Source of the DNA: Stegostoma tigrinum
Taxonomy: Eukaryota
Assembly (NCBI RefSeq): GCF_030684315.1
Contig: NC_081364.1
Span: 24,300,989 to 24,364,988 of the forward strand
Reading direction: 5' to 3'
DNA: 64,000 bases
Part shown: piece after piece, positions 9,832-52,242 of the stretch
Position numbering within the stretch: the first letter of the stretch is position 1
Layout of the letters: every line of letters begins with the position of its first letter
Position numbers and translations under genes: made by a program
The notes under the pieces: generated by a model
The model's input: the letters and a program-made list of their open reading frames with translations, nothing else
Told to the model about the DNA's origin: nothing
Database searches by the model: none

Positions 9832-10522
9832 GAGATAATGGGAACTGCAGATGCTAGAGAATCCAAGATAACGAAGTGTGAAGCTGGATGAACACAGCAG
9901 GCCAAGCAGCATCTCAGGAACACAAAAGCTGACACTTCAGGCCTAGATCCTTCATCAGAGCGTGTTCATCCAGCTTCAGACTTTGTTATCTTGGATTCTC
10001 CAGCATCTGCAGTTCCCATTATCTCTGATCACAATTTTAACCTCACTGCGAAGCCTCTTCCAGGGATGCCTAACCTGAAGAAGTTACCCTCCTCCCTCCG
10101 GACCAACCTCAGGGAATCTCTCTCCCACTGCAACTGTCTTGTAATCTCTTCGGCATTGAAACCTCTCGACCATGTCCTGAAGCAAACCAGGTACCACAGC
10201 CACGTCACCTTCCTCAGCACCTGCCTCTGGAACCGGATCATCCCCAATGGACTACAGTCTACATTCAAGCCTTCCCAATTTGGCCCCAACCGTGACCACC
10301 TGTACATCCAGAACATTGAGACCCTTCAGCAACGTTTCTCCTTGCGAATCCTGAAACAGACACTTGCAGCCATGTGCTGGCATCTCCAGGCACTGCAATC
10401 CAGTTTTTAAAAAATTTTCTTTTCCTCTCTGATGAAGGGTCTAGGCCCGAAACATCAGCTTTTGTGCTCCTGAGATGCTGCTTGACCTGCTGTGTTTATC
10501 CAGCTTCACACTTTGTTATCTT
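9832..10522. mobile_element. Penelope-like insertion nested in CR1: minus pLTR arm, plus pLTR-to-ORF N-terminus junction, plus pLTR arm
   Basis: pLTR and hammerhead sequence on both strands; ATG at 10066 opens MPNLKK...HVTFLSTCLWNRIIPNGL; degenerate TSD 9819-9831 / 10523-10535. Confidence 0.88.
10429..10456 (+). ncRNA. Minimal hammerhead ribozyme motif (PLE type)
   Basis: CTGATGA-A-GGGTCTAGGCCC-GAAA-CATC. Confidence 0.7.
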
Positions 10523-11224
10523 AAATGTGAGACAATGCCTTTTGAAAGATCCAATTCAAGAGCAAACTATACAGTAAATGGAAAAGTCCTGGGGAAAATT
10601 GATGCACAGAGAGATCTGGGTGTTCAGGTCCATTGTATCCTGAAGGTGGCAACGAAGGTGGATAGAGTGGTCAAGAAGCCATACAGCATGCTTTCATTCA
10701 TTGGACGGGGTATTGAGTACAAGAGTTGGCAGGTCATGTTACAGTTGCATAGGACTTCGGTTTGACCACATTTGGAATACTGCTTACAGTTCTGGTTGCC
10801 ACATTACCAAAAGGATGTGGATGTTTTGGACAGGATGCAGAGGAGGTTCACCAGGATGTCGCCTGGTATGGAGGGCGCTAGCTGTGAAGAGACATTTGAG
10901 TAGATTAGGGTTATTTACATTAGAAAGACGGAGGTTGAGGGGGGACCTAGAAAATCATGAGAGGTATAGACAGGGTGGATAGCAAGAAGCTTTTTCCCAG
11001 ATTGAGGGACTCAATTACTAGGGGTCGCGATTTCAAGGTGAGAGGGGAAAAGTTTAAGGGAGATATGGGTGGAAAGTTCTTTACATAGAGGGTAGTGGGT
11101 GCCTGGAACGCGTTGCCAGCAGAGATGGTAGAGGCGGGCACAATAGCATCATTTAAGATGTATCGAGACAGATACATGATTGGGTAGGGAGCAGAGGGAT
11201 ACAGATCCTTGGAAAATAGGTAAT

Positions 11225-11824
11225 GAAATGTGAGGCTGGTTGAACACAGCAGGCCCAGCAGCATCTCAGGAGCACAAAAGCTGACGTTTCGGGCCTAGAC
11301 CCTTCATCAGAGAGGGGGATGGGGAGAGGGAACTGGAATATATAGGGAGAGAGGGGGAGGCGGACCGAAGATGGAGAGAAAAGAAGATAGGTAGAGAGGA
11401 GAGTATAGGTGGGGAGGTAGGGAGGGGATAGGTCAGTCCAGAGAAGACGGACAGGTCAAGGACGTGGGATGAGGTTAGTAGGTAGGAGATGGAGGTGCGG
11501 CTTGGGGTGGGAAAAAGGGATGGGTGAGAGGAAGAACAGGCTAGGGAAGCAGAGACAGGTTGGACTGGTTTTGGGATGCAGTGGGGGGAGGGGATGAGCT
11601 GGGCTGGTTTGGTGATGCAGTGGGCGGAGGGGACGAGCTAGGCTGGTTTTAGGATGCGGTGGGGGAAGGGGAGATTTTGAAGCTGGTGAAGTCCACATTG
11701 ATACCATTGGGCTACAGGGTTCCCAAGCGGAATATGAGTTGCTGTTCCTGCAACCTTTGGGTGGCAATATTGTGGCACTGCAGGAGGTCCATGATGGACA
11801 TGTCATCTAAAGAATGGGAGGGGG
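11225..11824 (-). mobile_element. PLE 3' fragment (GIY-YIG C-terminus, 39-nt repeats, pLTR) inserted in the CR1 3' UTR
   Basis: Reverse complement of ~44815-45400; CR1 UTR resumes at ~11825. Confidence 0.9.
11283..11310 (-). ncRNA. Minimal hammerhead ribozyme motif
   Basis: Reverse complement reads CTGATGAAGGGTCTAGGCCCGAAACGTC. Confidence 0.78.
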
Positions 11825-12444
11825 ACAGGTTTCGATAGAGGATCTGGATTAGCACAGGTTTGGAGAGCCAAAGGGCCTGTTCCTGTGCTGTAACTTTCTT
11901 TGTCCTTTGTTCTATCTAACTCTTCTTCTCTCCCCCATAACACAATAAGTTGTTCCATTAAGAATGTTTCCAATTCCCTTTTAAAAGTTATAATTGGATT
12001 CGATTCTAGAGGCCATATCATAAATCCAAAATCATAACTTTCCAAATAAAGGAAAATTCTTATTTTCCCTTTGGTTCCCTTAGCAATGGACTTGGATAAG
12101 TTTTCAATTTCTATGTCAGGAAACAGCACTAAATATCATGTAACAAATTCACCAGTTGCATGTAACTGGTAAATGTCAATGAAATGTGAATGATATACAG
12201 ATTAGCTCAGTAGTTCATTTTCGCAATGTCTTTCACAATAAAACAAATGTACATAAACTTTAGTTGTCGTTGTGATTGTGAGATTTCACAGAAGTATTGT
12301 TTCCATTTATCAAATTGGAAGATACAATAAATCTGGTCCCGTTGACATGAAAGATTTCAAAGTAACTGCCATTTCAATATCAGATGGTAAACTACAGGCC
12401 TCAGTATGGATTGGCATCAGTTTACTTTGTTTTGATTGGCCAAC

Positions 12445-13520
12445 ACATAGGAAAATAGGAACAGGAGTAGGCCATTCAATCCCTCAAGACAGTTCTGCCA
12501 TTCAGTGAGATCATGGTTGATCTGCAGTCTAATTCTTTTATCTGCCTTTTGGACCTGAATACCCTTGCTTAACAACAAATAAGTCAACCTAATTTTTCAA
12601 CTTAGCAACTGATCTAGCATCACCTGCCATTTGTGGAAGAGTTCCAAAACTCCACCTTTCTTTATATGGAGGAGTGCTTCCTAACATCTCTCCTGAATGG
12701 TTTAGCCCTAATGTTTAGACCATGCCCACTAATTCTAGAATCTCTGAGCTGTGGAAATAGTTTATCTTTATCTTCTCTGCTTTATTCTGTTATTACCTTG
12801 AAGACTTTGATTACTGCTTAACCTTCTAAATCCTAGAGAAAACAGGCCAGTTTTCTATAATCTCTCTCCATAACTTAAACCCTGAAGTCTAGGTATCATT
12901 CTTATAAACCTACATTGTACTCCCTCCAAGGCCAATGTATCCATCCTAAAGTGTAGTGCCCAGATCTGCTTACAGTACACCAAGTGGGGTCTAACTTTTA
13001 TATAGTTACAGCATAACCTCTGCATCCTTATATTCCAGTCCTCTAGATATAAAGGCCAGCATTCCATTAGCCATCTTGCTTATTTTCTGCACGTGCTCAT
13101 GGCATTTTAAAATCTATGCACCGGGACCCCCAAGTCTCTTTGGATATCCACTGTAATTAATTTCATAACATTAAGAAATTACCATGATTGATTCTTTTTC
13201 ACCTAGTCTCTCAATATCGCTTTGTAATTTTATGGTATAATCCATACAGTTTGCAGTGCTTCCTAACTTTGTGTCATCAGCAAGTTTGAATATATGGTTT
13301 TCTATGCCATTACCCAAATTGTTGATAAATAATGGGAATAACTGGGGCCCGAATGCAGATCCTTGTGTGATACCACTGGTCACATCCTACCAATTTGAGT
13401 ATATACTCATCATCGCTACTTTCTCTTGCCTTACACTCAACCAGTTTCTTAGCTTTGTCAGTAATTTGCCTTATCATCCAATGCTAGCTGGATTGTCCCA
13501 CTCACAGTAGGCAGTTTTAC
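12445..13520 (-). mobile_element. CR1-type LINE 3' fragment, decayed
   Basis: ORF pieces SGITQGSAFGPQLF, KLADDTK, VRPHLVYC, GLSYGERL. Confidence 0.85.
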
Positions 13521-13719
13521 CAGCCACTGCCAAGATATCCTTTGATCTTTGGCACCAATGTCACATTTAAAAGACAGGCAAGTGCTTCCAGTCCAGAGCA
13601 GCCTGAATGTTTGGAGATCTTTTCCATGGATGCACAAACAAGGCAAAATTGGCAAATAGAGACTTTAACATCCTGGTGGACTGGGTGGTAGAGAAGAGGG
13701 TAATATTCTCTTTTTTATA

Positions 13720-13850
13720 TTTTTGTTTACTTGTGGGCATCACTGGCTGGCCAGCATTTATTGCCCATCCTTAGTTGCCCTTGAGAAGGTGGTGGTGAGC
13801 TGTTCCTTGAACCACCGCAGTCCACAATGCCCTGAAGGAGGGAATTCCAG
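13720..13850 (-). mobile_element. 3' fragment of an old LINE family
   Basis: ggccagcatttattgcccatcc...ttgagaaggtggtggtgagctg recurs at ~36780 and ~45850. Confidence 0.6.
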
Positions 13851-15644
13851 ATCTTCTTTGCTAGAGAAAGCCAAGACACAAGACCCTACCAGCCTGGTCC
13901 AAGGCTTCCACCTGGGTAAACCTCAATAGTCGGGATTGCACAGCAGAATGACATTCTTTGCTCTGTCAGGGTAAATGTCATCACCATCCCTCTGTCACTT
14001 CACACTTTACTACTGCAACCATCTCCCTCAAGGCTCATGCTCCACCACTCTCACAATTTCATGTAGCACCTTTCATGTGCTGTCACCCTGGCCAAACCCA
14101 GCCTCCACTACTAAGCCTACATTGCTTCCATGCTTCCTACTCATTTCCTCTTTTGAGTTTTACTGGATGGAACCTGAAGGCTGATTGTGGTTTGAGATTT
14201 AGCCAGATAGCCATGAACGATAAGTAACGAGATCCCCTGGCTAATACCAGTCAGGTACTGATCTCCAGACTTAGACTGTCACAAGCAGCTGACTGTGGCC
14301 AATCCCCTTGACTTACTGTGGTGGGATCTCTTCCCTAGATTTGACTGAAGACTATGTCCCTTAGCCTTTACACAGGGCTGTTTGTTTGTAGCATGTGCAG
14401 TGTATTTGAAGTACATGAGGCTGGCACATGGTGCCACTATATCACTGGCATTGCACAGTGCCTTAAAGCAACTAAGCTGCCTGGCTTTATTTCTGTTCTA
14501 AAAGGCAAGTCAAGAATTAAGTTCTGTAAACATTTAAGTACAGCTAAGGGGGCATAGTGCCAAAAGGTAAAGCAAAACAAGGCAGGAATTCTGTGAGCAT
14601 CAAACTAGCTTAATGTGAGTTAGCGCTAATCGAGTAAATGAGCAGCCAGATATGTGGCCTAGTCCAGTCCATGTCCTGGTTAGAGTATCATTTCAATGCA
14701 ACATGCCATGCACTTCAAAATGCAGCACTGAAGTGCAGAAGACTACTACAAGTGTTTCGGAATGTGCCATGAAGATGTGGTGAGGATAGTATATGTTGGA
14801 TGCCAATGCCCATGGATGAAGAGTGTGTAGGGTCACTGCCTATGGAAAATGCCCGGAGATGTTGGTCCCTGCTATCCAAGATGGAGATCCAGAGAAGCAG
14901 AGAGCTGCAGTTGTCAGGTACCTACTCTGACTTTCATGTCAGGAATTCTCAACATGTAGTTTCTATCCAGCAGGTGTTAGCATGCAAGACTGCATAATGA
15001 GGCAAGATTAAGTAATGAGAGCAAGAGTCTATGGTAATAGGACTCTCAAAATGCATCCTTTTGGTCTCAATGTCGAGGGACAGGAGAGTTGACATCTCAT
15101 CCAAGTTTCCCAAATTTATCATCATAATCTACATCATCCCAGGGCTGGGAAGATTCCACTTCACCAATCCAACTGCACCCAATTTCTAGATTTAGCTCTG
15201 ACACTTGATTTCCACAGGTGAGACACACAAACCTATAAGCACAAATCTTCAGTGTGTTCCATAGAGTACGTTGTAATGTCTACTCTTACAGCCTTACCTC
15301 ATTTTCACAAACAGATTTATACAACTATTATTAAATGCATTCAATAGGAATTCACCCTACACCTTATATTGTGGCAATAATATGGAGGAGAGGAAATCAT
15401 TACAATGTCAAATAGCATGAAGACCAGGAAGTTTGATAATGACAACTGGACAGCAGTTCAGTGGGAAAGAATCAAGAAATCTACAAGTGGGGCCTTTGGA
15501 CAAGATAAGCTAGGAGAGAATATGGGACAAAAATAGAGAAAATTGAGATCTATGAAGGGTGGGGGAAATGACATGGTGAGAAATGGGTGCAACAGAAGCA
15601 GCAGCTGGTCAGACTGTCGATATAATTAATAATTGATGGGGGCA

Positions 15645-15745
15645 ATGAGGCTCTTGTGGTGCAGCAGTAGTGTCCCACCTCTAAACCAAAAGGCCTGCCC
15701 ATCAAGTCCCACCTGTTCCGGTGGTGTGACTAACAGGTTGATTTT
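15645..15745 (+). mobile_element. tRNA-derived SINE fragment
   Basis: A-box-like tggtgcagcagt, degenerate B box; related sequence at ~24260-24330. Confidence 0.5.
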
Positions 15746-15809
15746 AAAGTCCATGATTGGTGTGATGGGGAGTAATATTGGAGGGTACAGGTGAAAATGG
15801 TTTAATAAG

Positions 15810-17055
15810 ACCATAAGACAAAGAAGCAGAAGTAGGTTATTCAGCCCATTGAGTCACTCTGCTATTCAATAACATCATGGCCGATCCAAATTCTCAACTG
15901 CACTTTCCTACGTTGGTTCCCTGACTGATTAAAAATGTGGCTCAGCCTTGAATATACTTAATGATCCAGCCTCAAAAGCACTCTATAGAGAAGAATTCCA
16001 TAGTTTCACTGTCCTCTGAGAAAACAAATTCCTTCTAACATGTATCATAACAGTGCAATAAAGGTCCCCTCTTATTCTTTTGTATTCCGATGAGTCCAGG
16101 CCATAGCTACTCAGCCTCTTCTCATAAGACAGTCCTTCCATAGCTGGTTTTAAAGTAGTGAACCTTCTGTGGACTGCCTCCAATGACAGCACATCTTTTC
16201 TCATATCAGGTGTCAAAAAAATGTTTGCAGAATTTCAGCTGTGGTCTGACTAGTGCTTTGTATAGTTTTGACAAAACCTCACTTTTACATTGCATTCCTG
16301 TTGAAATAATGATCAGCATTCTATTTACCATCCCTATTAACTGCTGAAACTTTTTCTGATTTATGCACAAGGACTTACAGATCCTTCTGTTCTGTAGTTT
16401 ACTGCTGTCTTTCTCTATTAGGTAATTTACATCTCCTTAATTCTTCCTGACAAAGTGAATAGCCTCACACTATATTTCATCTGCCCACTCAATTAACCTG
16501 TCTATATCCCTTTGCAAGCTCTGTGTCATCCCCACCACTTGCCTTTCCACCTATTTTTGTGTCAGCTGTACACTTGGCACTCACTTTCCTCATCCTCGTC
16601 ATTTAGTAAATAATTGTGACACCATCACTGATTCCTACTAGTTACAGGATGCCATCTGGAAAAAAGAACCTTATCTCAACTCTCTGTCTTCCATTAGTTA
16701 GCCAATTACCTATCAATGCGAATATATCACATCGAATACCATGGGATCTGTTTAAGTAACCTAATGTGTGATACTTCAATCAAACACTTTCCAAAAATCC
16801 AAACGTATTACATCCTTTGCTTCCATCCTTCTTGTACCTCCTCAAATAATTCTAATAGTCAGGGATGATTTCCCCTTCATGAAGCCATGCTGACTTTGTT
16901 TACATTACGTATTTCTAGATGCTTTTACATCCTTTATATTAGATTCTAACATTATCCAAATAATAGACATTTACTATAGGCAGGTTAGTTACCTAGTTTT
17001 TATCTAAGTACTAAGAGATGTCACATCAGCAATTTTCCACACTTCTGGTGTTTGA
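15810..17055 (-). mobile_element. CR1-type LINE fragment, decayed
   Basis: RKDVLSLEAVHRRFT...GLSYEKRL...FSQRTVKLWNS. Confidence 0.85.
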
Positions 17056-17332
17056 CAGTCTTAGTAGTAGAAAGGAAAAGATAAACTGGGGCTACATTTA
17101 TTCTGGGTGACAGTAAGAACTGCAGATGCTGGTGGAACAGAGCAGGCCAGGCAGCAGCAGAGAAGGAAAGCTGTTTATTGAGCTTCTAAAATACGGTAAT
17201 GACAATAACACAAAAAAAGTGAGACAATCTCAAATTTTTTGATCCAATTTTCAAAGGGACCACTACAAGAAATTGCTCTCTGTCAATCATTATTTTGTGA
17301 CAATTTTAACATATTGTTTGATATATACAGTT

Positions 17333-17656
17333 GAGTGGCATGATGGCTTAGTGATTAGCACTGCTGCCTCAAAGCGCCAGGTACGATTCCACCCTTGGGC
17401 AACTGTGTGGAATTGGCACATTCTCCCCACGTCTGCGTGGGTTTCCTCTGGGTGTTCCTGTTTCCTCCTGCAGTCCAAAGATGTACAGGCTAGGTGGATT
17501 AGCTATACTAACTGCTTATAGTATCCAGGGATGTTTAGGTTAGATGGGTTAGACATGGAAAAATGCAGGGGAATAGGTCTGAGTGGGATGCTGTTTGAAG
17601 GTGTGCTGAGGACTTGTTGGGCCGAATGGCCTGTTTCCACACTAAGGATTCTATGA
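17333..17656 (+). mobile_element. HE1-like V-SINE
   Basis: tRNA-like head, V-domain cacattctccccacgtctgcgtgggtttcctc, CR1-like tail; paralogous to 33630. Confidence 0.85.
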
Positions 17657-19709: not shown

Positions 19710-19979
19710 ACACTGTCCCTCCAAAGAGCATCCCACCCAGACCCGCAACCCTGCCCTCTCCCTGGAACCCTGAATTTTCCATTGCTAAACAACCTAACTT
19801 ACACACATCTTGACACCATGGGCAATTTAGCATGACCCATCCACTTAATCTGCACATCTTTAGACCGTGGGAGGAAACTACAGCACCCAGCGGAAATCCA
19901 CATAGAAGTAGGGAGCATGTGCAAACTCAACACAGTCACCCCAGGGTGGAATGCGAATCACAGAGCCACTGTGCCACCC
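19710..19979 (-). mobile_element. HE1-like V-SINE, decayed
   Basis: Reverse complement of the same family (gagccactgtgccaccc head). Confidence 0.75.
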
Positions 19980-22127: not shown

Positions 22128-22133
22128 TTTATT
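22128..22133 (-). promoter_or_regulatory. Candidate TAMM41 polyadenylation signal AATAAA
   Basis: tttatt on the + strand ~48 nt past the stop codon. Other candidates lie near 21710 and 21590. Confidence 0.45.
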
Positions 22134-22180
22134 TAAAATTGTCTTTTTCAAATATAAATTTAAATAATATTTAGCAAACG

Positions 22181-26190: not shown

Positions 26191-27689
26191 TGAGAGCTTC
26201 AGCTCCCATGATATTTAGCTTTTTTTAGAGCAACAGTGAGCCTTCTGACTCCAGAGCTTTGTTTCAGGCCAAAAAAAAGTTACCAGCTCATGTTGACTGT
26301 TTCCATTGGTTTCAAGGACCAGAGACAAATAAATATCGATTGTGGCTGGAGGATCACCAACTTCGGGAAAAACGCTTTGGGTCTGCCTGAATCATGCTAA
26401 TCTTGCAGTACAAAGGTGTTGCAGCTAGCACATTCTCAATTTCAGGACTGTGCTGAGAATAACACTAAAGCTTGGAACAACCCCATTTCTAACATTCTCT
26501 CACCACAACACAACTCCTTGGGCCTATATGAACTGAAGCATGTTTGACATGAAATGTAAATTGGAAATATAATCTGTAATGGTAACTGTTGCAAGACACT
26601 TGGGAGTGCCACATTCCATAAATTGAAAGAAACTGAACTGTATCACACTTAAGTAATGCATGTTTACAAATTATATGAACAAAGTATGTTTTTTTCCCCC
26701 CTCAAAAAGGCTCCAGGACCTACCCAGATGGCTGGCTACTTTTTAGTCAGCCTTAGTTAATGCAGAGAAAGCAGCTAATTGCCTCACTAGTATCCAGGAA
26801 AGTTTGGACTAACAAAACTTCAACCTTCAATGGGTTAACATGGGATTGTCTGTAAAGCATGGTAACAGTTGCTGTTAAAGTTCCATGCTTGTTATCCTTA
26901 AAAGGCATGTGATAACAGGCTTGACTCAGCTCTTGTAAAACTAGTTTAGGGATGTCGACTAACACCATAAAACTCAGAAGAGGAGTCACTTACAGTAGAA
27001 ACTGACTATTCCTGGCATGGCAAATACTTCAAATAGATGCAGTTTCTGCATTTTTTTGACATCACTGAGACCAAGGTTCATAATACAAAAACAACTTGGT
27101 TATAAAAATAACCAACTAAAACTTGTATTCCTCATTTTAAAAAAAAGGGCCATTCAAGCTTGAAATCCATGACAGCATTTGTTAATGGAGATGAATCAAC
27201 CCAAATTTGCAACTTAAAAACTTTAACATTACAAAGATTTTGCAAATATAGAGTAAGGTGCTTTGGAAGGCAATGTAATGCAACAGAGCAGCTAAAAAGC
27301 TTATCTTCCTGCCTCCAGCTTACAAAACCAGGCTGGACAAGATATTTTATAAAATGACATTTTCAGGATTTTTTATATTTTCATATTTTTAGAATAATCA
27401 AAGCTCTCTTTGGTAATTTTCTTACGGGTACTTCCAAGTAATTTGCCACGCAAGACATATGGCCATATTTTTGTTAATAAAGGAGCTAATTCTTGGGCAC
27501 GTAATAAAGTCTTCACACTATTAAGTTATCTCATGATAAATTAAAATGTAAAACTATCACCAATATAATCAAACAAGCCTCATAACATTAAAGATAATGG
27601 GAACTGCAGATGCTGGAGAATCCAAGACAACAAAATGTGAGGCTGGATGAACACAGCAGGCCAAGCAGCATCTCAGGAGCACAAAAGCT

Positions 27690-27717
27690 GACGTTTCAGG
27701 CCTAGACCCTTCATCAG
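27690..27717 (-). ncRNA. Minimal hammerhead motif, sense in TAMM41 pre-mRNA
   Basis: CTGATGAAGGGTCTAGGCCTGAAACGTC (G-U pair in stem II). Confidence 0.7.
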
Positions 27718-27724
27718 ACCCTCT

Positions 27725-27752
27725 CTGATGAAGGGTCTAGGCCCGAAACGTC
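27725..27752 (+). ncRNA. Minimal hammerhead motif
   Basis: CTGATGAAGGGTCTAGGCCCGAAACGTC. Confidence 0.78.
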
Positions 27753-27872
27753 AGCTTTTGTGCTCCTGAGATGCTGCTTGGCCTGCTTTGTTCATCCAGC
27801 CTCACATTTTGTTGTCTCATAACATTAAAGTCTGGTTTAATCACAGCACAACTTGTTAGCCATATTTACGAA

Positions 27873-28794
27873 GCAATATTTGCCCAGTGTTAAACATTTA
27901 TTTCTGGACCTACCGTATTCCCATAATTTTCCCTTTCCTGGATTGGTGGGATACATATTCAGACTAGTAGGACTTCCAATGCAATGCATTCCTCCAGATG
28001 ACTTTTCTAGCCTCTGAATGATTTAATTAGTCCTACACTACCTGCAGAAAGTAAACTTTCTGAGAAATATATTAAAGACCTTCCTTTAGGCAATGAAAGA
28101 ATGTGTGCCTGCTGAAGCTGAATGAAAGAATAAGTTAGGAGAATGCAAGATGTCTCTGGTTAACAAGCAGCACAATGTTCACATTCAGTTCAGCAATGTG
28201 AATCAAGGAATCCGGAACATATTTCCCTGAGTTGCATAACATTGGATGCCAGAAAATGGGAGATGGCATGAAACAATAATGCAATTGAATACTTTTCCTT
28301 AAGTCATGGAGAAGATTTAATTTTAAACAATCTGGATGGAATCTTGAAGGCAACTGGGGTCTTGCCTGCCAAATGGAGAGTCAGCAGGAGCTTCGTACCA
28401 CCTTTTGTAGGAAGGCACATCATTATCTTGTAGCACAGCAGCAGCCTTTCACATAGTCTGAAGGGCTCTGGATGCTGGCGGGGCGGGGGGGTAGTGCTGG
28501 TGTTGGAAAACCTGTATTGAGCCTTGCTGACCAGTCACAGGATCAATCGAGCTGCTAGCCTAAGTTTATAGTCTCCAACAAATCTGGAATCTGGGAGGGT
28601 AGGATAAACAAAAATGCTTCCTGCAGGTAGTGTAGGACTAATTAAATCATTCAGAGGCTAGAAAAGTCATCTGGAGGAATGCACTGCATCGGAAGTCCTA
28701 CTAGTCTGAATATGTATCCCACCAATCCAAGAAAGGGGAAATTATGGGAATACTGTAGGTCCAGAAATAAATGTTTAACACAGGCAAATATTGC
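27873..28794. repeat. Inverted repeat: arms 27873-28051 and 28617-28794, ~565-bp spacer
   Basis: Arms are direct reverse complements with only a few mismatches. Confidence 0.93.
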
Positions 28795-33973: not shown

Positions 33974-34056
33974 ATAAATGACTGCAGTCAGACCCAAATT
34001 AAAATGCATCTTTTCAATTCTTTCCTTCTACAAAAAAAAGCCTTCTGCTTAGATTA

Positions 34057-41499: not shown

Positions 41500-42045
41500 C
41501 AATGTATCTCCTTCACATTCACAAGACCAACTGCAGAACAGGTGACCACTTAGAGGAACACTTCCACCATCTGTAAGAATGACCCTGACTATCTAGTTGC
41601 TCCCATGCTATCATTTTCATTGTGCTCAAACCGAGGCAGGGGTAACAACAACTCATATTTCACTTGGATAATTTACACCTCAAGGACTCAACATTGAATA
41701 CAACAACTACAGTGCACAACGTCTGCCCTTCATTTTGATTATTCCTTGGCCATGGTCTGGTTTGTTTCTTGTTGGCTTTCCTCTCAAAATTTTCCCCTTT
41801 TCACATCTTTCATTTGCACCCATTTCAGATCTCCACCATTCCTTTACCTACATCTACACTCCCTGACTTTCTGAGCACCTTCACCATCAGTTCCAGTAGA
41901 TCCTCCTCCTCAGCATCAAAATCACTTTCCAAACCCCTTCAATTCCAAAGAACATTAAATTCTATTTCTCTTTCTACTGATGCAGTCGGACCTGCTGAGT
42001 TTCACGAGTTTCGTTTTGTTTTTATTTCAAATCCGCAGTATGTTT
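41500..42045 (+). mobile_element. Old PLE 3' remnant (decayed GIY-YIG and pLTR) in TAMM41 intron 1
   Basis: ggtgaccacttagaggaacac and caacaactcatatttcacttgg resemble the GDRFAEHL and QQLIFRLG coding segments of the younger PLEs. Confidence 0.6.
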
Positions 42046-42169
42046 TCCTTTACCAGTGTCACTGTCACAAATCCACGTCCTAGTTTTGTACAAGTAATAA
42101 GGATACCACCCACCCCACCCCGAGAACAGCCCATGTTAGCACCTATTACACAGAGTCTCCCTGACTTAC

Positions 42170-42301
42170 ACTGGGGCCTGGGTGTCCTGTCTGTCCGAAC
42201 AGGCCAGAGCCGTAAGCGAAGGCCAGGCTCAAATCCCGGGGGAAATGAGCCAGGATCCTCCGCATCAATCCATTGTTGCTCTGCAACATCGGCAACGACA
42301 T
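42170..42301 (-). CDS. TAMM41: TAMM41 coding exon 1 (MSLPMLQSNNGLMRRILAHFPRDLSLAFAYGSGLFGQTGHPGPS)
   Basis: Manual translation, not in the ORF track. Contains the Tam41 LSLAFAYGSG motif; 132 nt; followed by a gtaagt donor. Confidence 0.95.
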
Positions 42302-42555
42302 AACGTCCCAAGCTACCACTCAGCCCCTTCGGCGATGGGCCTTTTTTAAAAAAACTTATAAAGGCCCAGGACCAGCCCCCGAAGTAAAGTTACGAGCCAG
42401 GCGGTTCCATAATGTCGGAGGGCCAGGGGGTGGGACGTGGGCTCCGCTCGCCGCCAGCCGCCAGCGCACTCACTGCTCCACCTTCCGGCAGGAGGAGCAA
42501 GCTGCAGCTCCCGCTGGCTGCGGCCAACAGGCAGAGGTTGAGAGGTAGCGGGGTG
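42170..42555. promoter_or_regulatory. CpG-rich promoter / 5' region of TAMM41
   Basis: Strong local GC and CpG enrichment over and upstream of exon 1; ETS-like CCGGAAG on the minus strand near 42482. Confidence 0.75.
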
Positions 42556-42640
42556 TAGACCTGGATGAACACAGCAGGCTAAGCAGCATCGTAGGAGCAG
42601 GAATGCTGACGTTTCAGGCCGAGACCCTTCTTCAGGAAAA
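42555..42640 (-). mobile_element. Short pLTR fragment with hammerhead motif at 42608-42635
   Basis: Minus strand reads CTGAAGAAGGGTCTCGGCCTGAAACGTC. Confidence 0.75.
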
Positions 42641-42783
42641 AGGCTGACCTTGGGGCTGAGGCTTGGTCAAAGGGTAGACAATGGCCAATGCAGCAAGTGG
42701 TCAAACAGAGTATGAAGGGGATAACAAAGCGTGAAGCTGGATGAACACATCAGGCCCAGCAGCATCTCAGGAGCACAAAAGCT

Positions 42784-42811
42784 GACGTTTCGGGCCTAGA
42801 CCCTTCATCAG
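42784..42811 (-). ncRNA. Minimal hammerhead motif
   Basis: Matches the family motif exactly. Confidence 0.78.
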
Positions 42812-43419
42812 AGAGGGGGATGGGGAGAGGGAACTGGAATCAATAGGGAGAGAGGGGGAGGCAGACCGAAGATGGAGAGAAAAGAAGATAGGTGGAGAAG
42901 AGAGTATAGGTGGGGAGGTAGGGAGGGGATAGGTCAGTCCAGGGAGGACGGACAGGTCAAGGAGGCGGGATGAGGTGGTAGGTAGGAAATGGAGGTGCGG
43001 CTTGAGGTGGGAGGAAGGGATGGGTGTGAGGAAGAACAGGTTAGGGAAGCAGAGACAGGCTGGGCTGGTTTTGTGATGCAGTGGGAGGAGGGGATGAGCT
43101 GGGCTGGTTTTGGGATGCATTGGGGGAAGGGGAGATTTTGAAGCTTGTGAAGTCCACGTTGATACCATTGGGCTGCAGGGTTCCCAAGCAGAATATGAGT
43201 TGCTGTTCCTGCAACCTTCGGGTGGCATCATTGTGGCACTGCAGAAGGCCCATGATGGACATGTTGTCTGAGGAACGGGAGGGGGAGTTGAAATGGTTTG
43301 CGACTGGGAGGTGCAGTTGTTTGTTGCGAACCGAGCAGAGGTGTTCAGCAAAGCGGTCCCCACCCTCCGCTTGGTTTCCCCAATGTAGAGGAAGCCACAC
43401 CGGGTGCAATGGATACAAT

Positions 43420-45086
43420 ATATCCACAAACCTGCCTGCCCTGGTCGACCCATTGTCTCAGCCTGTTCCTGCCCCACTGATCTTAACTCCGCCTATCTGG
43501 ACTCCATTTGCTCCACTTTGGTCCAGGAACTCCCCACCTACGTCCATGACACCACCCATGCCCTCCACCTCCTCCAGGACTTCCAATTCCCCGGCCCCCA
43601 ACACCTGAATTTCATCATGTACATCCAGTCCCTATACACCTGTGTTCCTCATGCAGATGGCCTCAAGGCCCTCCACTTCTTCCTGCCCCGCAGGCCCGAC
43701 CAATCCCCCTCCACCAACACCCTCATCCGCCTAGCCGAACTCGTCCTCACCCTCAACAACTTCTCTTTCGATTCCTCCCACTTCCTACAGACAAAGGGGG
43801 TGGCCATGGGTACCCGCATGGGCCCCAGCTATGCCTGCCTCTTTGTAGGTTACGTGGAACAGTCCCTCTTCCACACCTACACAGGCCCCAAACCCGACCT
43901 CTTCCTCCGTTACATTGATGACTGTATCAGCGCCACCTCTTGCTCCCCAGAGAGCTCCACTTTACCAACACCTTCCACCCCAACCTCAAGTTCACCTGGG
44001 CCATCTCCAACACATCCCTGACCTTCCTGGACCTCTCAGTCTCCATCTCAGGTAACCACCTAGAAACTGATGTCCATTTCAAGCCCACTGACTCCCACAA
44101 CAACCTAGAATACACCTTCTCCCACCCACCCTCCTGCAAAAATTCCATCTCCTATTCCCAATTCCTCCGCCTCCACCGCATCTGCTCCCAGGATGAGGCA
44201 TTCCACTCCTGCACATCCCAGATGTCCACGTTCTTCCGGGACTGCCACTTTCCCCCCACAGTGGTCAAGAACGCCCTTGACCGCGTCTCCCGCATTTCCC
44301 ACAACACATCCCTCACACCCCGCCCCCGCCACAACCGCCCCCAGAGGATTCCCCTCGTTCTCACATACCACCCCACCAACGTCTGGATACAACGTATCAT
44401 CCTCCGACACATCCGCCATCTACAATCCGAGCCCACCACCCAAGCCATTTTTCCATCCCCACCTTTGCCTTGTGGAGAGACCACGCTCTCCATGACTCCC
44501 TTGTTCGCTCCACACTCCCCTCAACCCCACCACACCCGACACCTTCCCCTGCAACCACAGGAAGTGTTACACTTGCCCCCACACCCCCTCCCTCACCCCT
44601 ATCCCAGGCCCCAAGGTGACCTTCCATATCAAGCAGATGTTCACCTGCACATCTGCCAATGTGGTATATTGTATCCATTGCACCCGGTGTGGCCTCCTCT
44701 ACATTGGGGAAACCAAGCGGAGGCTTGGGGACCGCTTTGCAGAACACCTCTGCTCGGTTCGCAACAAACAACTGCACCTCCCAGCCACGAACCATTTCAA
44801 CTCCCCCTCCCATTCCTCAGATGACATGTCCATCATGGGTGTCCTGCAGTGCCACAATGATGCCACCCGAAGGTTGCAGGAGCAGCAACTCATATTCCGC
44901 TGGGGAACCCTGCAGCGCAATGGTATCGATGTGGACGTCACAGGCTTCAAAACCTCCCCTTCCCCTACTGCATCCCAAAACCAGCCCAGCTCATCCCCTC
45001 CTCCCACTGCATCTCAAAACCAGCCCAGCTCCTCCCCTCCCTTCTCTGCATCCCAAAACCAGCCCCGCCTGTCTCTGCTTCCCTAA
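43420..45086 (+). pseudogene. PLE RT-GIY-YIG ORF with frameshifts (~43950, ~44470)
   Basis: IHKP..PGRPIVS, SLYTCVP, GVAMGTRMGPSYACLF, FLRYIDD; VVYCIHCTRCGLLYIGETKRRLGDRFAEH; C-terminal 13-aa repeats. Confidence 0.93.
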
Positions 45087-45316
45087 CCTGTTCTTCCTCT
45101 CACCCATCCCTTCCTCCCACCCCAAGCCGCACCCCCATCTCCTACCTCCTAACCTCATCCCACCTCCTTGACCTGTCCATCTTCCCTGGACTGACCTATC
45201 CCCTCCCTACCTCCCCACCTATACTCTCCTCTCTACCTACCTTCTTTTCTCTCCATCTTTGGTCCGCCTCCCCCTCTCTCCCTATTTATTCCAGTTCCCT
45301 CTCCCCATCCCCCTCT

Positions 45317-45344
45317 CTGATGAAGGGTCTAGGCCCGAAACGTC
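45317..45344 (+). ncRNA. Minimal hammerhead motif
   Basis: CTGATGAAGGGTCTAGGCCCGAAACGTC. Confidence 0.78.
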
Positions 45345-45774
45345 AGCTTTTGTGCTCCTGAGATGCTGCTTGGCTTGCTGTGTTCATCCGGCTCCACACT
45401 TTGTTATCTTGGATTCTCCAGCATCTGCAGTTCCCATTATCACAGAGTATGAAGGAGAATTTGGAAATCTTATATCCGTGCCCCCACTACTGATGCCGTC
45501 CTACTGAAATTTCACTTTTACATAGCACCTTCTAACTTAATAAAATGAATACTCATAACAGAAGGGTTATAAAGTAAAAGTTGACGTCAAGCAACAAAGG
45601 GTGATATGAAACAAATACACAAACCTTGGTTAAAGATGTAAACATTAAGGAGCTGCTCCAGCATGTGAAGAGAAGTAGAGAAGACCATGGGGGAAATTCC
45701 TGAGCTCATCCTGCCTAATTAAGTTGTCTTCCCAACTGAAACAGTGGAAGATTAAGCTCTATGACTTTAAAATT

Positions 45775-46257
45775 CATCCATTCACAGTATGTGGGCATCA
45801 TTGGCTAGGCCAACATCTGTTACACACCTCTAATTCTTTTTATTTATTCTTGGGACATGGGCATCACTGACAGGCCAGCATTTTACTTTCTGTCCCTAGT
45901 TGCCTTCGAGAAGGTAGTGATGACCTGCCTTCTCGAACCATTGCAGCCCATGTGCTGTCGTTTGCACCACAATATCATGGGGGCTGGGGGCAATTCCAGG
46001 ATTTTGGCCCAGCAACAGTGAAGGAATGGCAACATACTTTCAAGTCAGGATGATGAGTGGTTTGGAGGGGAACTTGCTACCTGCTACCTTTATCCTTTTA
46101 GATGGAATGGTTATGTTTTTGGTAGGTGCTATCTATGGATCTTTGATGAATTTCTGCGTGCATCCTGTAGACAGTACATATTGCTGCTACTGAGTGTTGG
46201 AGGTGGAGGGAGTTGATGCTTTTGGCTATGATACCAATCAAACAGGCTGCTTCGTCT
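45775..46257 (-). mobile_element. Old LINE 3' end; continues after the CR1 insertion as the tandem array, to ~48500
   Basis: Same family as 13720 and 36775; the array unit resembles ~63170-63275. Confidence 0.65.
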
Positions 46258-47096
46258 TAGAACATAGAACATAGAAGATAGAACAGTACAGCACAGAACA
46301 GGCCCTTCAGCCCACAATGTTGTGCCGACCATTGATCCTCATGTATGCACCCTCAAATTTCTGTGACCTATACATGTCCAGCAGTCTCTTAAATGACCCC
46401 AATGACCCTGCTTCCACAACTGCTGCTGGGAACGCATTCCATGCTCTCACAACTCTCTGCGTAAAGAACCTGCCTCTGACATCCCCTCTATACTTTCCAC
46501 CAACCAGCTTAAAACTATGACCCCTTGTGCTAGCCATTTCTGCCCTGGGAAATAGTCTCTGGCTATCAACTCTATCTATGCCTCTCATTATCTTGTATAC
46601 CTCAATTAGGTCCCCTCTCCGCCTCCTTCTCTCCAATGAAAAGAGACCGAGCTCAGTCAACCTCTCTTCATAAGATAAGCCCTCCAGTCCAGGCAGCATC
46701 CTGGTAAACCTCCTCTGAACCCTCTCCAAAGCATCCACATCTTTCCTATAATAGGGCGCCCAGAACTGGACGCAGTATTCCAAGTGCGGTCTAACCAAAG
46801 TTTTATAGAGCTGCAACAAGATCTCACGACTCTTAAACTCAATCCCCCTGTTAATGAAAGCCAAAACACCATATGCTTTCTTAACAACCCTGTCCACTTG
46901 GGTGGCCATTTTAAGGGATCTATGTATCTGCACACCAAGATCCCTCTGTTCCTCCACGCTGCCAAGAATCCTATCCTTAATCCTGTACTCAGCTTTCAAA
47001 TTCGACCTTCCAAAATGCATCACCTTGCATTTATCCAGGTTGAACTCCATCTGCCACCTCTCAGCCCATCTCTGCATCCTGTCAATGTCCCGCTGA
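46258..47096 (-). mobile_element. Young 5'-truncated CR1 LINE
   Basis: Uninterrupted 256-aa ORF2 C-terminus (46307..47077: WQMEFNLDKC, LVRPHLEYC, TRGHSFKL) and a tagaaca repeat tail. Confidence 0.95.
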
Positions 47097-48468
47097 ATGG
47101 ACTCATCAGAGCAGCTGGGGAGTATTCCGCAAAACTATTAAGTTATGCTTTTGAGACAGACTTTGAGAGTCAGGAAGTGGGTTAGTCACCAAGGGATTGG
47201 TGGCCTCTGACCTGCTCTTATAACCATTGTATTTCTGTGGTTAATTCAGTTCATTTTCTGGTCAATGGTAATACTTGTAATGTTCATAATGGAGGAATCA
47301 GTGCTGTTAATGTCATTGAATTTCCAGAGATAATGGTTAGGTTTTCCTTTGTTAGAGATGATCATTACCTGCCATTTGTTTGTATAATTTGCCACTTTTT
47401 AGCCCAAGTCTGGATACAGTCTTGAATGATGGCAAGCTTGTTGAGATGGACTCATCAGAGCAACTGGGGAGTATTCCACAAAACTATTAAGTTATGCTTT
47501 TGAGACAGACTTTGAGAGTCAGGAAGTGGGTTAGTCACCAAGGGATTGGTGGCCTCTGACCTGCTCTTATAACCATTGTATTTCTGTGTTTAATTCAGTT
47601 CATTTTCTGGTCAATGGTAATACTTGTAATGTTCATAATGGAGGAATCAGTGCTGTTAATGTCATTGAATTTCCAGAGATAATGGTTAGGTTTTCCTTTG
47701 TTAGAGATGATCATTACCTGCCATTTGTTTGTATAATTTGCCACTTTTTAGCCCAAGTCTGGATACAGTCTTGAATGATGGCAAGCTTGTTGAGATGGAC
47801 TCATCAGAGCAACTGGGGAGTATTCCACAAAACTATTAAGTTATGCTTTTGAGACAGACTTTGAGAGTCAGGAAGTGGGTTAGTCACCAAGGGATTGGTG
47901 GCCTCTGACCTGCTCTTATAACCATTGTATTTCTGTGGTTAATTCAGTTCATTTTCTGGTCAATGGTAATACTTGTAATGTTCATAATGGAGGAATCAGT
48001 GCTGTTAATGTCATTGAATTTCCAGAGATAATGGTTAGGTTTTCCTTTGTTAGAGATGATCATTACCTGCCATTTGTTTGTATAATTTGCCACTTTTTAG
48101 CCCAAGTCTGGATACAGTCTTGAATGATGGCAAGCTTGTTGAGATGGACTCATCAGAGCAACTGGGGAGTATTCTACAAAACTATTAAGTTATGCTTTTG
48201 AGACAGACTTTGAGAGTCAGGAAGTGGGTTAGTCACCAAGGGATTGGTGGCCTCTGACCTGCTCTTATAACCATTGTATTTCTGTGGTTAATTCAGTTCG
48301 TTTTCTGGTCAATGGTAATACTTGTAATGTTCATAATGGAGGAATCAGTGCTGTTAATGTCATTGAATTTCCAGAGATAATGGTTAGGTTTTCCTTTGTT
48401 AGAGATGATCATTACCTGCCATTTGTTTGTACAATTTGCCACTTTTTAGCCCAAGTCTGGATACAGTC
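47097..48468. repeat. Tandem array, 349-bp unit, about 4 copies (first copy lacks 24 bp)
   Basis: Unit ends at 47421, 47770, 48119 and 48468; only a few substitutions between copies. Confidence 0.97.
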
Positions 48469-48561
48469 CAGGGTTTGCTACATTTGGACTTGGACTACTC
48501 AACATTGGCAGCAATGAAAGTTAAATGGGAAATGTTTAATGGCACTTCCAGTCTTATTCTA

Positions 48562-48737
48562 TAAGTGTAGCACTTCCTGCGGTTGCAGGGGAAGGTGCCG
48601 GGTGTGGTGGGGTTGGAGGGGAGTGTGGAGCGGACAAGGGAGTCGCGGAGACAGTGGTCTCTCTGGAAGGCAGACAAGAGTGGGGATGGAAAAATGGCTT
48701 GGGTGGTGGGGTCGGATAAGTTTGTTGCGAACCGCTG
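48562..48737 (-). mobile_element. Internal PLE fragment (RT-endonuclease linker)
   Basis: RDHCLRDSLVRSTLP...PGTFPCNRRKCYT; homologous to ~44425-44575. Confidence 0.85.
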
Positions 48738-49087
48738 ACATGCAATTAAATATCCATGAAAGTAGGTACACAGAAAAAAGCAGGAGTAATTCTCAAGATT
48801 CTAGGAAATCCAAGATAGAAGGTGGGAAAAAAATGTGACTGTAACAGCTGCTCCTTTTTTGAGGTCTTTTCAGTGTTGGAACTGAATTTATCCAATTCCA
48901 GGAACCATAATTACTGTTTTATAAGCTGTTGCACTGTTTCAGAAATTTGGGCAAGAAGAAATCGAAACAAAGGCACTTTAAAAAGGAGGAAGAGATACAA
49001 AGCAGCGACCACATGGGAAGTGAAACAAATCGAGAATTAAACCTGTCTGACCTAGCAGTGAACCTGCACAGCTGACTGCCCTCTGCT

Positions 49088-49620
49088 CAGAGATAGTAAG
49101 AACTGCCGATGCTGGAGTCAGAGATAACACAGTTATCCAGTGAAGCTGGAGGAACACAGCAGGCCAGGCAGCATCAGAGGAGCAGGAAAGCTGACGTTTC
49201 GCGTCAGGACCCTTCTTCAGAAATGGGGGAGGGTGAAGGGGGGTCTGAAACGAATAGAGAGAGAGGGGTGGGGCTGAGAAAGGTAGGTGGAATGCTGATA
49301 AGTGAGTGCAGGTAGGCAGTGGTGGGGATTGGTCAGTGAGGTGGGAGGAGCGGATAGGTAGAAGAGAAGACAGACAGGTCAAGGACGCAGGAATGAGAGG
49401 GAGGGTTGGTCATGGGTTGAGGCTGAGGTCGGAAGATTTTGAAATGAGTAAAGTCCACATTGAGACCATGGGGTTGAAGGCTCCCAAGGCAGAATATGAG
49501 GGCTGCTTCTCCAGTTTCCAGGTGGCGTCGTTGTGACATTGGAGGAGACCCAGGGTAGACATGTTGCCCAGGGAGTGGGAGGGGGAGTTGAAGTGGTTTG
49601 CGACTGGAAGGTGTTGTTGT
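49088..49620 (-). mobile_element. PLE 3' fragment of a second subfamily, hammerhead at 49193-49220
   Basis: HLPVANHFNSPSHS...; CTGAAGAAGGGTCCTGACGCGAAACGTC. Confidence 0.85.
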
Positions 49621-50872
49621 TTGACGCATTTGCAGCAGTTAGAAGCAATGATGAATTTACAGGAGCAAGGGGGTATGATGGATGGCAGTCGCAGGCAGGG
49701 CGACAAACTGAACATACAGTCAGGTAGATGGGTTACCTCCAGGAGAGATAGGAGGGGTAGGCAGATAGTGCAGGAGTCTCCTGTGGCTATGTTCATCACA
49801 AACAAGTATGATGTTTTGGAAAATGTAGGAGGTGATGGACTCTCAGGGAAATGTAGCACAGACAGCCAGGGTTCCGGTACTGAGGCTGGCTCTCATGTAA
49901 CAAGGGTTATATCAGGTTCCAAGCGATCATTTGTGATAGGGGAGTCTCTATTCAGAGGCACAGACAGACTCTTCTGCAGTTGATGGCAAGACATCAGAAT
50001 AGTGTGTTGCCTCCCTGCAGCCAGGATCGAAGATATCTGAGAGAGGGTGCAGAATAATCTCAAAGGGGAGAGGGACCAGTGGGAGATTGTTGTGTACATT
50101 GGAACTAATGACACAGGAATAGAAAAAGACAAGATTCTGAGGAGACAATATAGAAAGTTCGGCAGGAATTTAAAATGTAGGTCCTTGAAGCTAGTAATAT
50201 CTGGATTACTTCGGGTGTCACGTTCTAGTGAGGGTAGAAATAGGAGGATAGAGTAGATGAATGCATGAATGCATGGCTGAGGAGCTGGTGCAGGGGAGAA
50301 GAATTCACATTTTTGGATCATAGGAATCTCTCCTGGTGTAGAAGTGTAAGGAAGGACGGATTGCACCTGAATTGGAAGAGGTCTAATGTATTGCCGGAGA
50401 GATTTGCTGGTGCTGTTTGGGAGGATTTAAACCAGTAAGGGGGGAGGGGTGGGATCCAGGGAGAGAGTCAGGAAAGAGATCAGTCTGGTACAATTGGGAA
50501 AAGGAGCAAGTCAAACAGTCAGGGCAGGCAGAAACAAAGCAAAGACTGAGGTAGGATTGATAATTTAAACTGCATTTATTTCAATGCAAGAGGCCTAACA
50601 GGTAAGGCAGACAAACTCAGGGCATGGTTGGGAATGTGGGACTGGGATATCATAGCAATTGCAGAGACATGTCTCAGGAATGGACAGGACTGGCAGCTTA
50701 ATGTTCCAGGGTATAGATGCGATAGGAAGAATTGAAAGTGGCAACAAGGGAGGAGGGAGAGTGGTGCTTTTGATGAGGGATAATATTACGGCTGTACTTC
50801 AGGAGAATATTCCTGGGAATATGCCCAGGGAGGTTATTTGGGTGGAACTGAGAAATTTGAAAGGGATGATCA

Positions 50873-52242
50873 GAGATAATGGGGACTGCAGATGCTGGAG
50901 AATCCAAGACAACAAAGTGTGAAGCTGGATGAACACAGCAGGCCAAGCAGCATCTCAGGAGCACAAAAGCTGATGTTTCGGGCCTAGACCCTTCATCAGA
51001 AAAGGCGGATGGGGAGAGGGAACTGGAATAAATAGGGAGAGAGGGGGAGGCAGACTGAAGATGATAGACGAGAAGATAGGTGGAGAGGAGAGTATAGGTG
51101 GGGAGCTGGGGAGGGGATAGGCAGTTCGGGGAGGACGGACAGGTCAAGGAGGCAGGATGAGGTTAGTAGGTGGGAAATGGAGGTGTGGCTTGATGTGGGA
51201 GGATGGGATAGGTGAGAGGAAGAACAGGTTAGGGAGGTGGGGACATGCTGGGCTGGTTTTGGGATGCAGTGGGGGAAGGGGAGATTTTGAAGCTTGTGAA
51301 GTCCACATTGATACCATTGGGCTTCAGGGTTCCCAAGGGGAGTATGAGTTGCTGTTCCTGCAACCTTCGGGTGACATCATTGTGGCACTGCAGGAGGCCC
51401 ATGATGGACATGTTGTCTAAGGAATAGGAGGGGGAGTTAAAATGGTTTGCGTGGGGAGGTGGGGAGGGGATAGGTCAGTCCGGGGAGGACGGACAGGTCA
51501 AGGAGGCAGGATGAGGTTAGTAGGTGGGAAATGGAGGTGTAGTATACTATATCCACTGTACCCGGTGTGGGTTCCTCTACGCTGGGGAAACCAAGCAGAG
51601 GCTTGGCGACCGCTTTGCAGAACACCTCTGCTTGGTTCACAACAAACAACTGCACCTCCCAGTCGCGAACCATTTTAACTCTCCCTCCCATTCCTTAGAC
51701 GACATGTCCATCATGGGCCTCCTGCAGTGCCACAATGATGCCACCCGAAGGTTGCAGGAACAGCAACTCATATTCCGCTTGGGAACCCTGCAGCCCAATG
51801 GTATCAATGTGGACTTCACAAGCTTCAAAATCTCCCCTTCCCCCACTGCATCCCAAAACCAGCCCAGCTCGTCCCCTCCCCCCATTGCATCCCAAAACCA
51901 GCCCAGCTCATCCCCACCTCCCTAACCTGTTCTTCCTCTCACCTATTCCCCCCCCCACCTCAAGCCACACCTCCATTTCCCCCCTACTAAACTCATCCTG
52001 CCTCCTTGACCTGTCCGTCCTCCCCGGACTGACCTATCCCCTCCCCACCTCCCCACCTATACTCTCCTCTCCACCTGTCTTCTCATCTATCATCTTCGGT
52101 CCGCCTCCCCCTCTCTCCCTATTGATTCCAGTTCCCTCACCCCATCCTCCTCTCTGATGAAGGGTCTAGGCCCGAAACGTCAGCTTTTGTGCTCCTGAGA
52201 TGCTGCTTGGCCTGCTGTGTTCATCCAGCTTCACACTTTGTT
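50873..52242. mobile_element. Fold-back PLE nested in CR1 (minus arm to ~51540, plus arm from ~51540)
   Basis: 19-bp TSD aattt(g/a)aaagggatgatca at 50854-50872 and 52243-52261; GIY-YIG fragments on both strands; hammerheads at 50972-50999 (-) and 52154-52181 (+). Confidence 0.93.
52154..52181 (+). ncRNA. Minimal hammerhead motif
   Basis: Matches the family motif exactly. Confidence 0.78.

Follow-up and report, generated by a model that had tools for sequence, protein, structure and literature searches.

Paired long and short ends in Penelope-like element insertions of Stegostoma tigrinum, and their probable origin by two-site twin priming on one RNA

The stretch of DNA considered here (the window) comprises 64,000 nucleotides of Stegostoma tigrinum (assembly GCF_030684315.1, contig NC_081364.1, positions 24,300,989-24,364,988, forward strand) and harbors four insertions of a Penelope-like element (PLE) that appears, on sequence grounds, to be Neptune-type. 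Both termini of each insertion are outward-facing 3′ ends of the pseudo-long terminal repeat (pLTR), one of them a long end (L, ...cccaTTATC) and the other a short end (S, ...ttgTTATC), as an earlier note on this DNA had described. We consider it likely that these PLE insertions pair the long and the short end by twin priming at two sites on the same RNA, with run-off at the RNA cap and template jumps. This reading rests on two windows of end positions, a near-strict L/S pairing, A-rich flanks, primer–template overlap, longer target-site duplications (TSDs), and matching partner arms. The insertions and the ends of copy 3 are as follows.

9832-10522: copy 1; antisense L arm 9832-9960, sense piece 9962-10403, linker, sense S arm 10424-10522
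9819-9831 and 10523-10535: TSD of copy 1; 3 mismatches in 13, all transitions, two of them CpG-type
27594-27815: copy 2, a mini palindrome; antisense L arm 27593-27718, sense S arm 27719-27817
27579-27593 and 27816-27830: TSD of copy 2; 15 bp, exact
42719-45441: copy 3; antisense S arm 42720-43428, sense L arm 43426-45441
42705-42718 and 45442-45455: TSD of copy 3; 14 bp, exact
50873-52242: copy 4; antisense L arm 50875-51461, repeated piece of the 3′ untranslated region (UTR) 51451-51539, sense S arm 51538-52243
50854-50872 and 52243-52261: TSD of copy 4; 19 bp, 1 mismatch
45404-45408, plus strand: S site TTATC of copy 3
45409-45441, plus strand: 33-nt tail of copy 3, closing at the L site TTATC 45437-45441

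The sense arm of copy 3 serves as the reference (ref), such that window position equals ref + 43425, with the S site ending at ref 1983 and the L site at ref 2016; every reference employed is a natural copy. Two claims of the earlier note hold in part. TSDs of 13-19 bp are clear for copies 2, 3, and 4, but copy 1 has only a degenerate 13-mer, whose score of 6.7 falls under both the cut-off of 8 (reached by 0.3% of 600 mismatched pairs) and the 99th percentile of those mismatched pairs (7.1). The two TTATC sites 33 nt apart are real, but the ends are spread over windows rather than fixed at points: across 43 two-arm loci, the final templated base falls, for the most part, at 0 to +9 relative to the L TTATC and at -7 to +4 relative to the S TTATC. 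Copy 1 is additionally complex. Its sense piece 9962-10403 crosses both sites into the N-terminal region of the open reading frame (ORF; read-through part 10024-10403), and a T/A-rich linker of 20 nt separates the two sense pieces, the S side being a composite arm with a template jump.

Arm ends beyond the window were tabulated in seven genomic blocks picked blind to content (1.464 Mb of the 3.2-Gb genome, window included), where this element family accounts for 7.9% of the DNA. The 292 pLTR ends are bimodal at the two sites and not random. Among 229 clusters, 78 are two-ended, comprising 77 L/S, one S/S, and no L/L; the fixed long-end/short-end pairing suggested in the earlier note thus extends to the genome sample, where long/long and short/short pairs are not as common. 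A TSD is present in 56 of the two-ended clusters (55 L/S and the S/S), and the lone S/S cluster consists of an L/S unit together with a separate neighboring single S arm. Single-arm clusters number 57 for L (14 with a TSD) and 62 for S (19 with a TSD). Because L and S are used about equally, independent choice of ends would predict L/S in half of the two-ended clusters (binomial p 2.6e-22 against 0.5). The count excludes 32 of the 229 clusters, 24 that lack any L or S end and 8 in which one outer end is damaged; no clean L/L occurs among them, and in one old cluster an arm reads through L. Overall, of the loci whose 3′ end could be mapped, about 40% are two-arm units (77/196).

A second, targeted set of 49 loci, chosen for a long end or for the 5′ part of the ORF, yielded 31 L/S, one S/S, and no L/L among 32 TSD-bounded two-ended units; several "5′-truncated L" TSD assignments in this set are artefacts of the duplicated tail and were excluded from use. 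Further, both ends are visible in 11 of 20 inspected loci with an internal A-run (described below), which by eye are 9 L/S, one S/S (L244), and one unclear. L/L units were found in none of the block sample, the targeted loci, and the A-run loci. As a separate observation, the block on C2 contains one L/S unit nested within another, and a tandem triplication of 843 bp in which an L arm recurs together with its TSD (offsets 79653-83766 and 72130-75229 cover both).

The same termini could in principle have been inherited from a single master palindrome, or a few, in which they were already present, an outcome that the earlier note had raised and that was not found here. Junction coordinate pairs are distinct in 72 of the 77 L/S units, which indicates that there was no master copy and that the L/S rule is made anew at each insertion. 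Five junction coordinate pairs were seen twice, as such descent would have it, but the L/S pairing persists across copies that differ widely in junction, in length (130 bp to >5 kb), and in subfamily haplotype, and the exact ends vary over about 10 nt. Junction diversity refutes descent for most copies, and we regard a master palindrome as a most improbable general explanation.

Both ends bear the marks of priming. Measured against a two-sided shuffled null, primer–template overlap averages 1.65 nt at L (37 of 55 junctions) and 1.68 nt at S (41 of 58), with shuffled values of 0.73 and 0.65; the remaining junctions, 18/55 and 17/58, respectively, carry untemplated bases and were excluded. The 8 nt outside the nick are A-rich at both ends (A 148 and T 59 of 344; A 158 and T 40 of 344). 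TSDs have a median of 15 in two-arm copies (n=55) and 13 in single-arm copies (n=33; p 4e-5), and longer two-arm TSDs are the expectation if both overhangs are retained as primers.

These features bear on the published reading, in which there is a single primer and the cDNA or antisense RNA folds back on itself. Self-priming is proposed in PMC3846280 and resolution by the endonuclease (EN) in PMC8557442; the second arm would end 33 nt short through such EN resolution or a steric block. The sharing of 1-7 bases at 21 of 46 simple head-to-head junctions, and the near-perfect palindromes among them, would suit this explanation. However, fold-back predicts an S arm contained within the L arm. Across the 77 pairs the S arm instead reaches further 5′ in 34, the L arm in 27, with 16 ties; where the difference exceeds 100 nt, S is the longer in 13 and L in 11, and no systematic bias of L or S toward being the longer arm was found in these pairs. 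That neither arm is nested in the other argues against simple fold-back from one cDNA, although a later deletion at the palindrome center could blur or mask nesting. Fold-back is also hard to reconcile with TSD-bearing single-arm S copies being as common as L copies (19 vs. 14), with the similarity of overlap and flank at S and L junctions, or with the longer two-arm TSDs, and we judge it distinctly improbable. A separate model in which both arms stop simultaneously was dropped: arm lengths among long pairs are uncorrelated (rho -0.05, n=16).

If two primers are involved, the question is whether they share a template. Arms can be classed as "mini" (stopping within the pLTR) or extended, and partners tend strongly to be of one class: 48 pairs are both mini, 21 both extended, and 8 mixed (n=77; Fisher p 2.5e-11). 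At non-CpG diagnostic sites in the 49 younger pairs of the 77, partner arms agree at 437 of 452 (0.967), compared with a shuffled mean of 0.757 and maximum of 0.83, and rare variants are common to partner arms in 12 cases against 1.9. The occurrence of the same haplotype and length class in both arms therefore favors one RNA, and two sites on one RNA would give L/S pairing without extra assumptions. Twin priming on two separate RNAs, with an asymmetric dimer fixing one protomer per site, accounts for strict pairing just as well, and a dimer is predicted in PMC11167929. It would also accommodate the 15 discordant diagnostic sites and the 8 mixed pairs, in three of which the L arm stops at the 5′ edge while the S arm continues 700-1100 nt. 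Against it stand the strong sharing of length class and haplotype and the need for an extra source of asymmetry between identical protomers; we consider two templates unlikely as the rule.

Evidence on the template's 5′ end comes from where arms stop. The relevant positions in copy 3 are these.

45313, plus strand: position of the arm 5′ stop and extra G in other copies; putative capped transcription start
45317-45346, plus strand: candidate minimal hammerhead (CTGATGA-helix II-GAAA-C-GTC), with the predicted cut after 45344

The core of this putative hammerhead starts at ref 1892, with its predicted cut after ref 1919. Judged by eye, it agrees with the description in PMC4209133 in its core motif, bulged base, G-C first pair, and palindromic AC/GT; an Rfam scan of the window at gathering score returned 0 matches, hammerhead included. 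The earlier note had described arm truncation points as variable, which is half accurate: some two thirds of arms end inside the pLTR, where one position forms a sharp edge. Of 182 arms, 49 stop within the 15-nt window ref 1880-1894 (3.3 per nt), as against 2 in the 30 nt upstream (0.07 per nt). Genome-wide exact counts of the base before this start give G 2813 vs. A 541 where no A precedes (G/T context), in DNA that is 29% A and 20% G, and G 76, A 3, T 2, and C 20 after five A; the tandem element has C immediately before that start. An untemplated 5′ G has been ascribed to the cap for L1 and SVA (PMC3287187). Reverse transcriptase (RT) would probably run off a capped RNA end and could jump from there onto a poly(A) end, as the sequences of composite arms would suggest.

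Such arms occur in near-full-length loci, where a pLTR from ref 1888-1891 is joined to unrelated internal sequence via an A-run and G. At least 8 A are present in 23 of the 76 A-run + G loci. The 20 of the 76 that were inspected are the first plus-strand ones and were selected on the pattern itself. Ahead of the A-run, 11 carry element sequence in the same sense, each breaking off at a position of its own (11 in all); in the others the A-run is preceded by the partner arm (4), by host flank (3), by element plus unassigned single-copy sequence (1), and by foreign RNA (1). In the foreign-RNA capture (L252:421-660, G000:C14), a polyadenylated RNA from another repeat family lies between a PLE arm and A9-G-pLTR. 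Its donor, on another contig (G000:C1:173927444-173927669), is 96% identical over 226 nt and ends exactly at the A-run; it carries AATAAA 13 nt before the break, and the donor sequence runs on without a genomic A-run. A search for the donor of the non-element piece in L242 returned L242 alone. A near-full unit of this kind, L209, consists of pLTR, whole ORF, 3′ UTR to ref 1737, A8, G, pLTR, and L end, with a mini S arm as partner and a 15-bp TSD, and this is the layout that a monomeric mRNA would yield via run-off and a poly(A) jump. Elsewhere (G000:C3:84702540-84702848), three A5-G-pLTR starts follow one another at 141-bp spacing, from either repeated run-off and jump or local tandem duplication.

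A rather unlikely alternative is that the 5′ edge marks an RT stop at the base or cut site of the hammerhead, with the A-run and G produced by slippage after the element's own AAAAGCT had been copied by fold-back. The edge does sit 4 nt ahead of the hammerhead core, and 4 arms end exactly at the predicted cut. At that cut, however, a pile-up was looked for and no clear peak was found (0.8 arms per nt vs. 2.2 and 1.4 flanking). Exact four-A junctions, which this alternative would explain, number 176 genome-wide; they are mostly head-to-head, joining an arm that ends at the predicted hammerhead cut to an arm that starts at the 5′ edge. Against it, G exceeds A 5-fold even without a preceding A, the A-runs, up to 8-9 long, lie behind 11 separate positions of the element as well as behind the AATAAA site of a foreign RNA, and a stop arising at each pass would not be common to both arms.

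The proposal of the earlier note that priming occurs from the two strands of a staggered cut at two internal sites, and that the cDNAs then join head to head, is the best-supported reading, though we infer it in part. The element protein would nick the two DNA strands at points some 15 bp apart, and the resulting 3′ overhangs would prime reverse transcription on the same RNA, one at the L site and the other at the S site 33 nt upstream, perhaps through a dimer whose two active sites are positioned at the two RNA sites. The two cDNAs would join 3′ end to 3′ end through short microhomology, and single-arm copies may be events in which one arm aborted or was lost. The template would be a capped transcript starting at window position 45313, about 95 and 128 nt before the S and L sites. 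Priming in the 5′ pLTR would then give short run-off cDNAs with a cap-derived base—the mini palindromes of about 220 bp, about two thirds of two-arm loci—and priming in the downstream pLTR would give long arms. A run-off cDNA may jump to the oligo or poly(A) end of another or the same RNA and continue; such a jump would yield composite arms, foreign-RNA capture, and a pLTR-ORF-pLTR unit from monomeric mRNA. If so, a single mechanism would account for the tail, for the inverted pLTR, for the direct pLTR seen in full-length copies, and for foreign-transcript capture, and antisense templates or ribozyme-made circles would become unnecessary. A tentative extension, which we place at somewhat under even chances, is that obligatory two-site twin priming on one capped mRNA, with strong-stop-like cDNAs bearing a cap base and poly(A) transfer, operates PLE-wide.

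Several points weigh against two-site priming on one capped RNA. The mixed pairs and discordant sites (copy 3 is discordant at one) suggest that some pairs may have two templates, and one source locus dominating the RNA pool of the cell could also give matching class and haplotype. Two TSD-bounded S/S units exist, L205 (exact 13-bp TSD) and L244, each with a template jump in one arm. The 176 four-A junctions mostly read CAAAAG, and G plus AAAA is the element's own antisense at the hammerhead cut; the extra G could in part be inherited from source copies already bearing it, and the jump linker of copy 1 is not a clean A-run and G. Folding at the two sites gives no stable stem-loop beyond shuffles (z 0.92, 0.66). 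In PMC11167929, the Anolis protein shows no start-site difference between strands in vitro, end pairing lying outside that assay. Finally, the evidence is drawn entirely from old, mutated genomic copies.

The identity of the element is indicated by two regions of copy 3.

43428-43955, plus strand: RT core with YIDD, 5′-truncated and frameshifted downstream; Pfam RVT_1 E 5.9e-4, below gathering
44496-44960, plus strand: linker Zn-finger CNHRKCYTC and GIY-YIG endonuclease; GIY-YIG E 1.6e-5, above gathering

The domain order is thus RT followed by a C-terminal GIY-YIG. The window copies are frameshifted; in the homologue P0009, RT and GIY-YIG lie within a single 889-aa frame. The RT of copy 3 has 798 homologues with a top identity of 80%, and the best named ones, among the matches listed, are from sharks and rays. 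The natural copy L209 additionally has a DKG motif ahead of the RT core (PADKGGAVVVW) and a linker Zn-finger reading CNRRKCYTC, and the translation of copy 3 shows a CCHH Zn-finger whose two Cys (CxxC) lie between GIY and YIG (VVYCIHCTRCGLLYIGE...EHL...NHF). A CX2-5CxxC Zn-finger in the RT-EN linker marks Neptune and Nematis and is described as absent in Penelope and Poseidon in PMC8557442. The element is accordingly of Neptune/Nematis rather than Poseidon type, since it carries this finger; within that pair, the label "Neptune-type" is suggested by the linker motif and the vertebrate host, and no named Neptune or Nematis clade reference appears among the 120 homologues listed. The pLTRs arise from partial tandems, direct or inverted, with a tail, as in endonuclease-bearing (EN+) PLEs. 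A full unit spans about 3.6 kb in the order pLTR, S, tail, L, ORF, 3′ UTR, pLTR. Both S and L sites are internal to the element, the sequence continuing through L into the N-terminal part of the ORF; this read-through part is present in 25/25 loci of one set, by ascertainment. At least four pLTR subfamily haplotypes of differing age (75-97% to copy 3) occur in the seven blocks, all of them L/S-compliant.

Much of this architecture is known and ordinary. The one-sided tail and the inverted pLTR of PLEs have been described (PMC3846280, PMC8557442), and the 33-nt end difference is that published tail. Pen2a_Av, an EN+ PLE, likewise shows a head-to-head, 5′-truncated inverted arm with a TSD, a tail at one end (31 nt there, 33 here; 30-40 bp for EN+ PLEs), and partial tandems, and it has a pLTR hammerhead to which the candidate motif here would correspond (PMC3846280; PMC8557442, Fig. 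2 legend). Reports of that type treat the tail as optional and the inversion as self-priming, whereas here pairing holds in 77/78 and twin priming is favored; TSDs are 8-10 in EN+ PLE reports and 12-19 bp here (PMC3846280, PMC8557442). A second close parallel is PAc, a Poseidon of Anolis carolinensis, for which in vitro work reports two adjacent internal start sites that bound the tail downstream of a hammerhead, cutting and extension of both strands at an AT-rich target, and a predicted dimer (PMC11167929). PAc is without the linker Zn-finger, which the present element has and by which it falls outside Penelope/Poseidon. An AC-rich stem-loop is reported for PAc and none was found at the sites here; primer and template are called "not homologous" there and overlap by 1-2 nt here; and pairing, cap, and jumps, counted or inferred here, go unreported in the available sections of that paper (PMC11167929).

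Two further systems serve for comparison. In L1 twin priming, said to have been proposed by Ostertag and Kazazian in 2001, both target overhangs reportedly prime one RNA and microhomology joins the products, leaving an inverted 5′ arm within the TSD; the internal site where the second primer anneals is said to vary, and the arms to be free of overlap. Here, the two sites are fixed, with 33 nt between them, and the overlapping arms form a palindrome. Neither a variable second site nor non-overlapping arms were found, so the two work alike without being identical. In the minus-strand strong-stop transfer of LTR elements and in R2-type jumping, a short 5′ cDNA runs off, transfers to a 3′ end, and regenerates a terminal repeat. 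In contrast, the primer here would be target DNA and not tRNA, the acceptor would be an oligo or poly(A) end at variable positions, no RNase H or R region was observed, and jumps occur in a minority of copies.

PLEs are the sister group of telomerase, and PMC8557442 states the origin of their tandem and inverted pLTRs and tail to be unresolved; the steps after initiation are left unvalidated in PMC11167929. The earlier note knew of no description of the pairing rule. The tail, the inverted pLTR, and the two start sites are published; the strict L/S counts and their explanation by twin priming were not found in print. A literature search, with older subscription papers outside it, returned no strict L/S pairing, PLE twin priming, cap base, or poly(A) jump. 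The pairing may already have been described in Arkhipova 2006 or in Evgen'ev and Arkhipova 2005. The supplement text of PMC11167929 gave no hits; its Figs S1-S2 may bear on end pairing. What is newly added here are the near-strict L/S counts, the shared-template evidence, and the cap and jump signature. The counts lead to sharp predictions for an in vitro test: strict L/S, a single RNA for each event, capped transcripts beginning at a specified base, and poly(A) jumps. The poly(A) jump is also a possible route for PLE-driven capture of host RNA, and the palindromes of about 220 bp should be annotated as by-products, not as miniature inverted-repeat transposable elements (MITEs).

The window contains further copies of the family.

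11226-11825, minus strand: additional single-arm copy with an S-type end; a TSD was looked for and none found
42553-42635, minus strand: older single S-type pLTR fragment
49092-49623: old pLTR fragment (L)
62922-63008: old pLTR fragment (S)

The S ends of two insertions of different subfamilies abut the same host-repeat site (window 11190-11226; L014:2620-2660), a possible site preference. Copies 1 and 4 themselves lie within other dispersed repeats (9700-9830, 10530-11160, 50570-50870, and 52245-52660), which resemble fragments of CR1-type long interspersed nuclear elements (LINEs). Unrelated repeats are also present: a tandem array of about four copies occupies 47097-48468, with a period of about 349 bp and 98-99% identity, and a 179-bp inverted repeat to the right of copy 2 (27873-28051 and 28617-28794), 95.5% identical, may represent the termini of a small DNA transposon.

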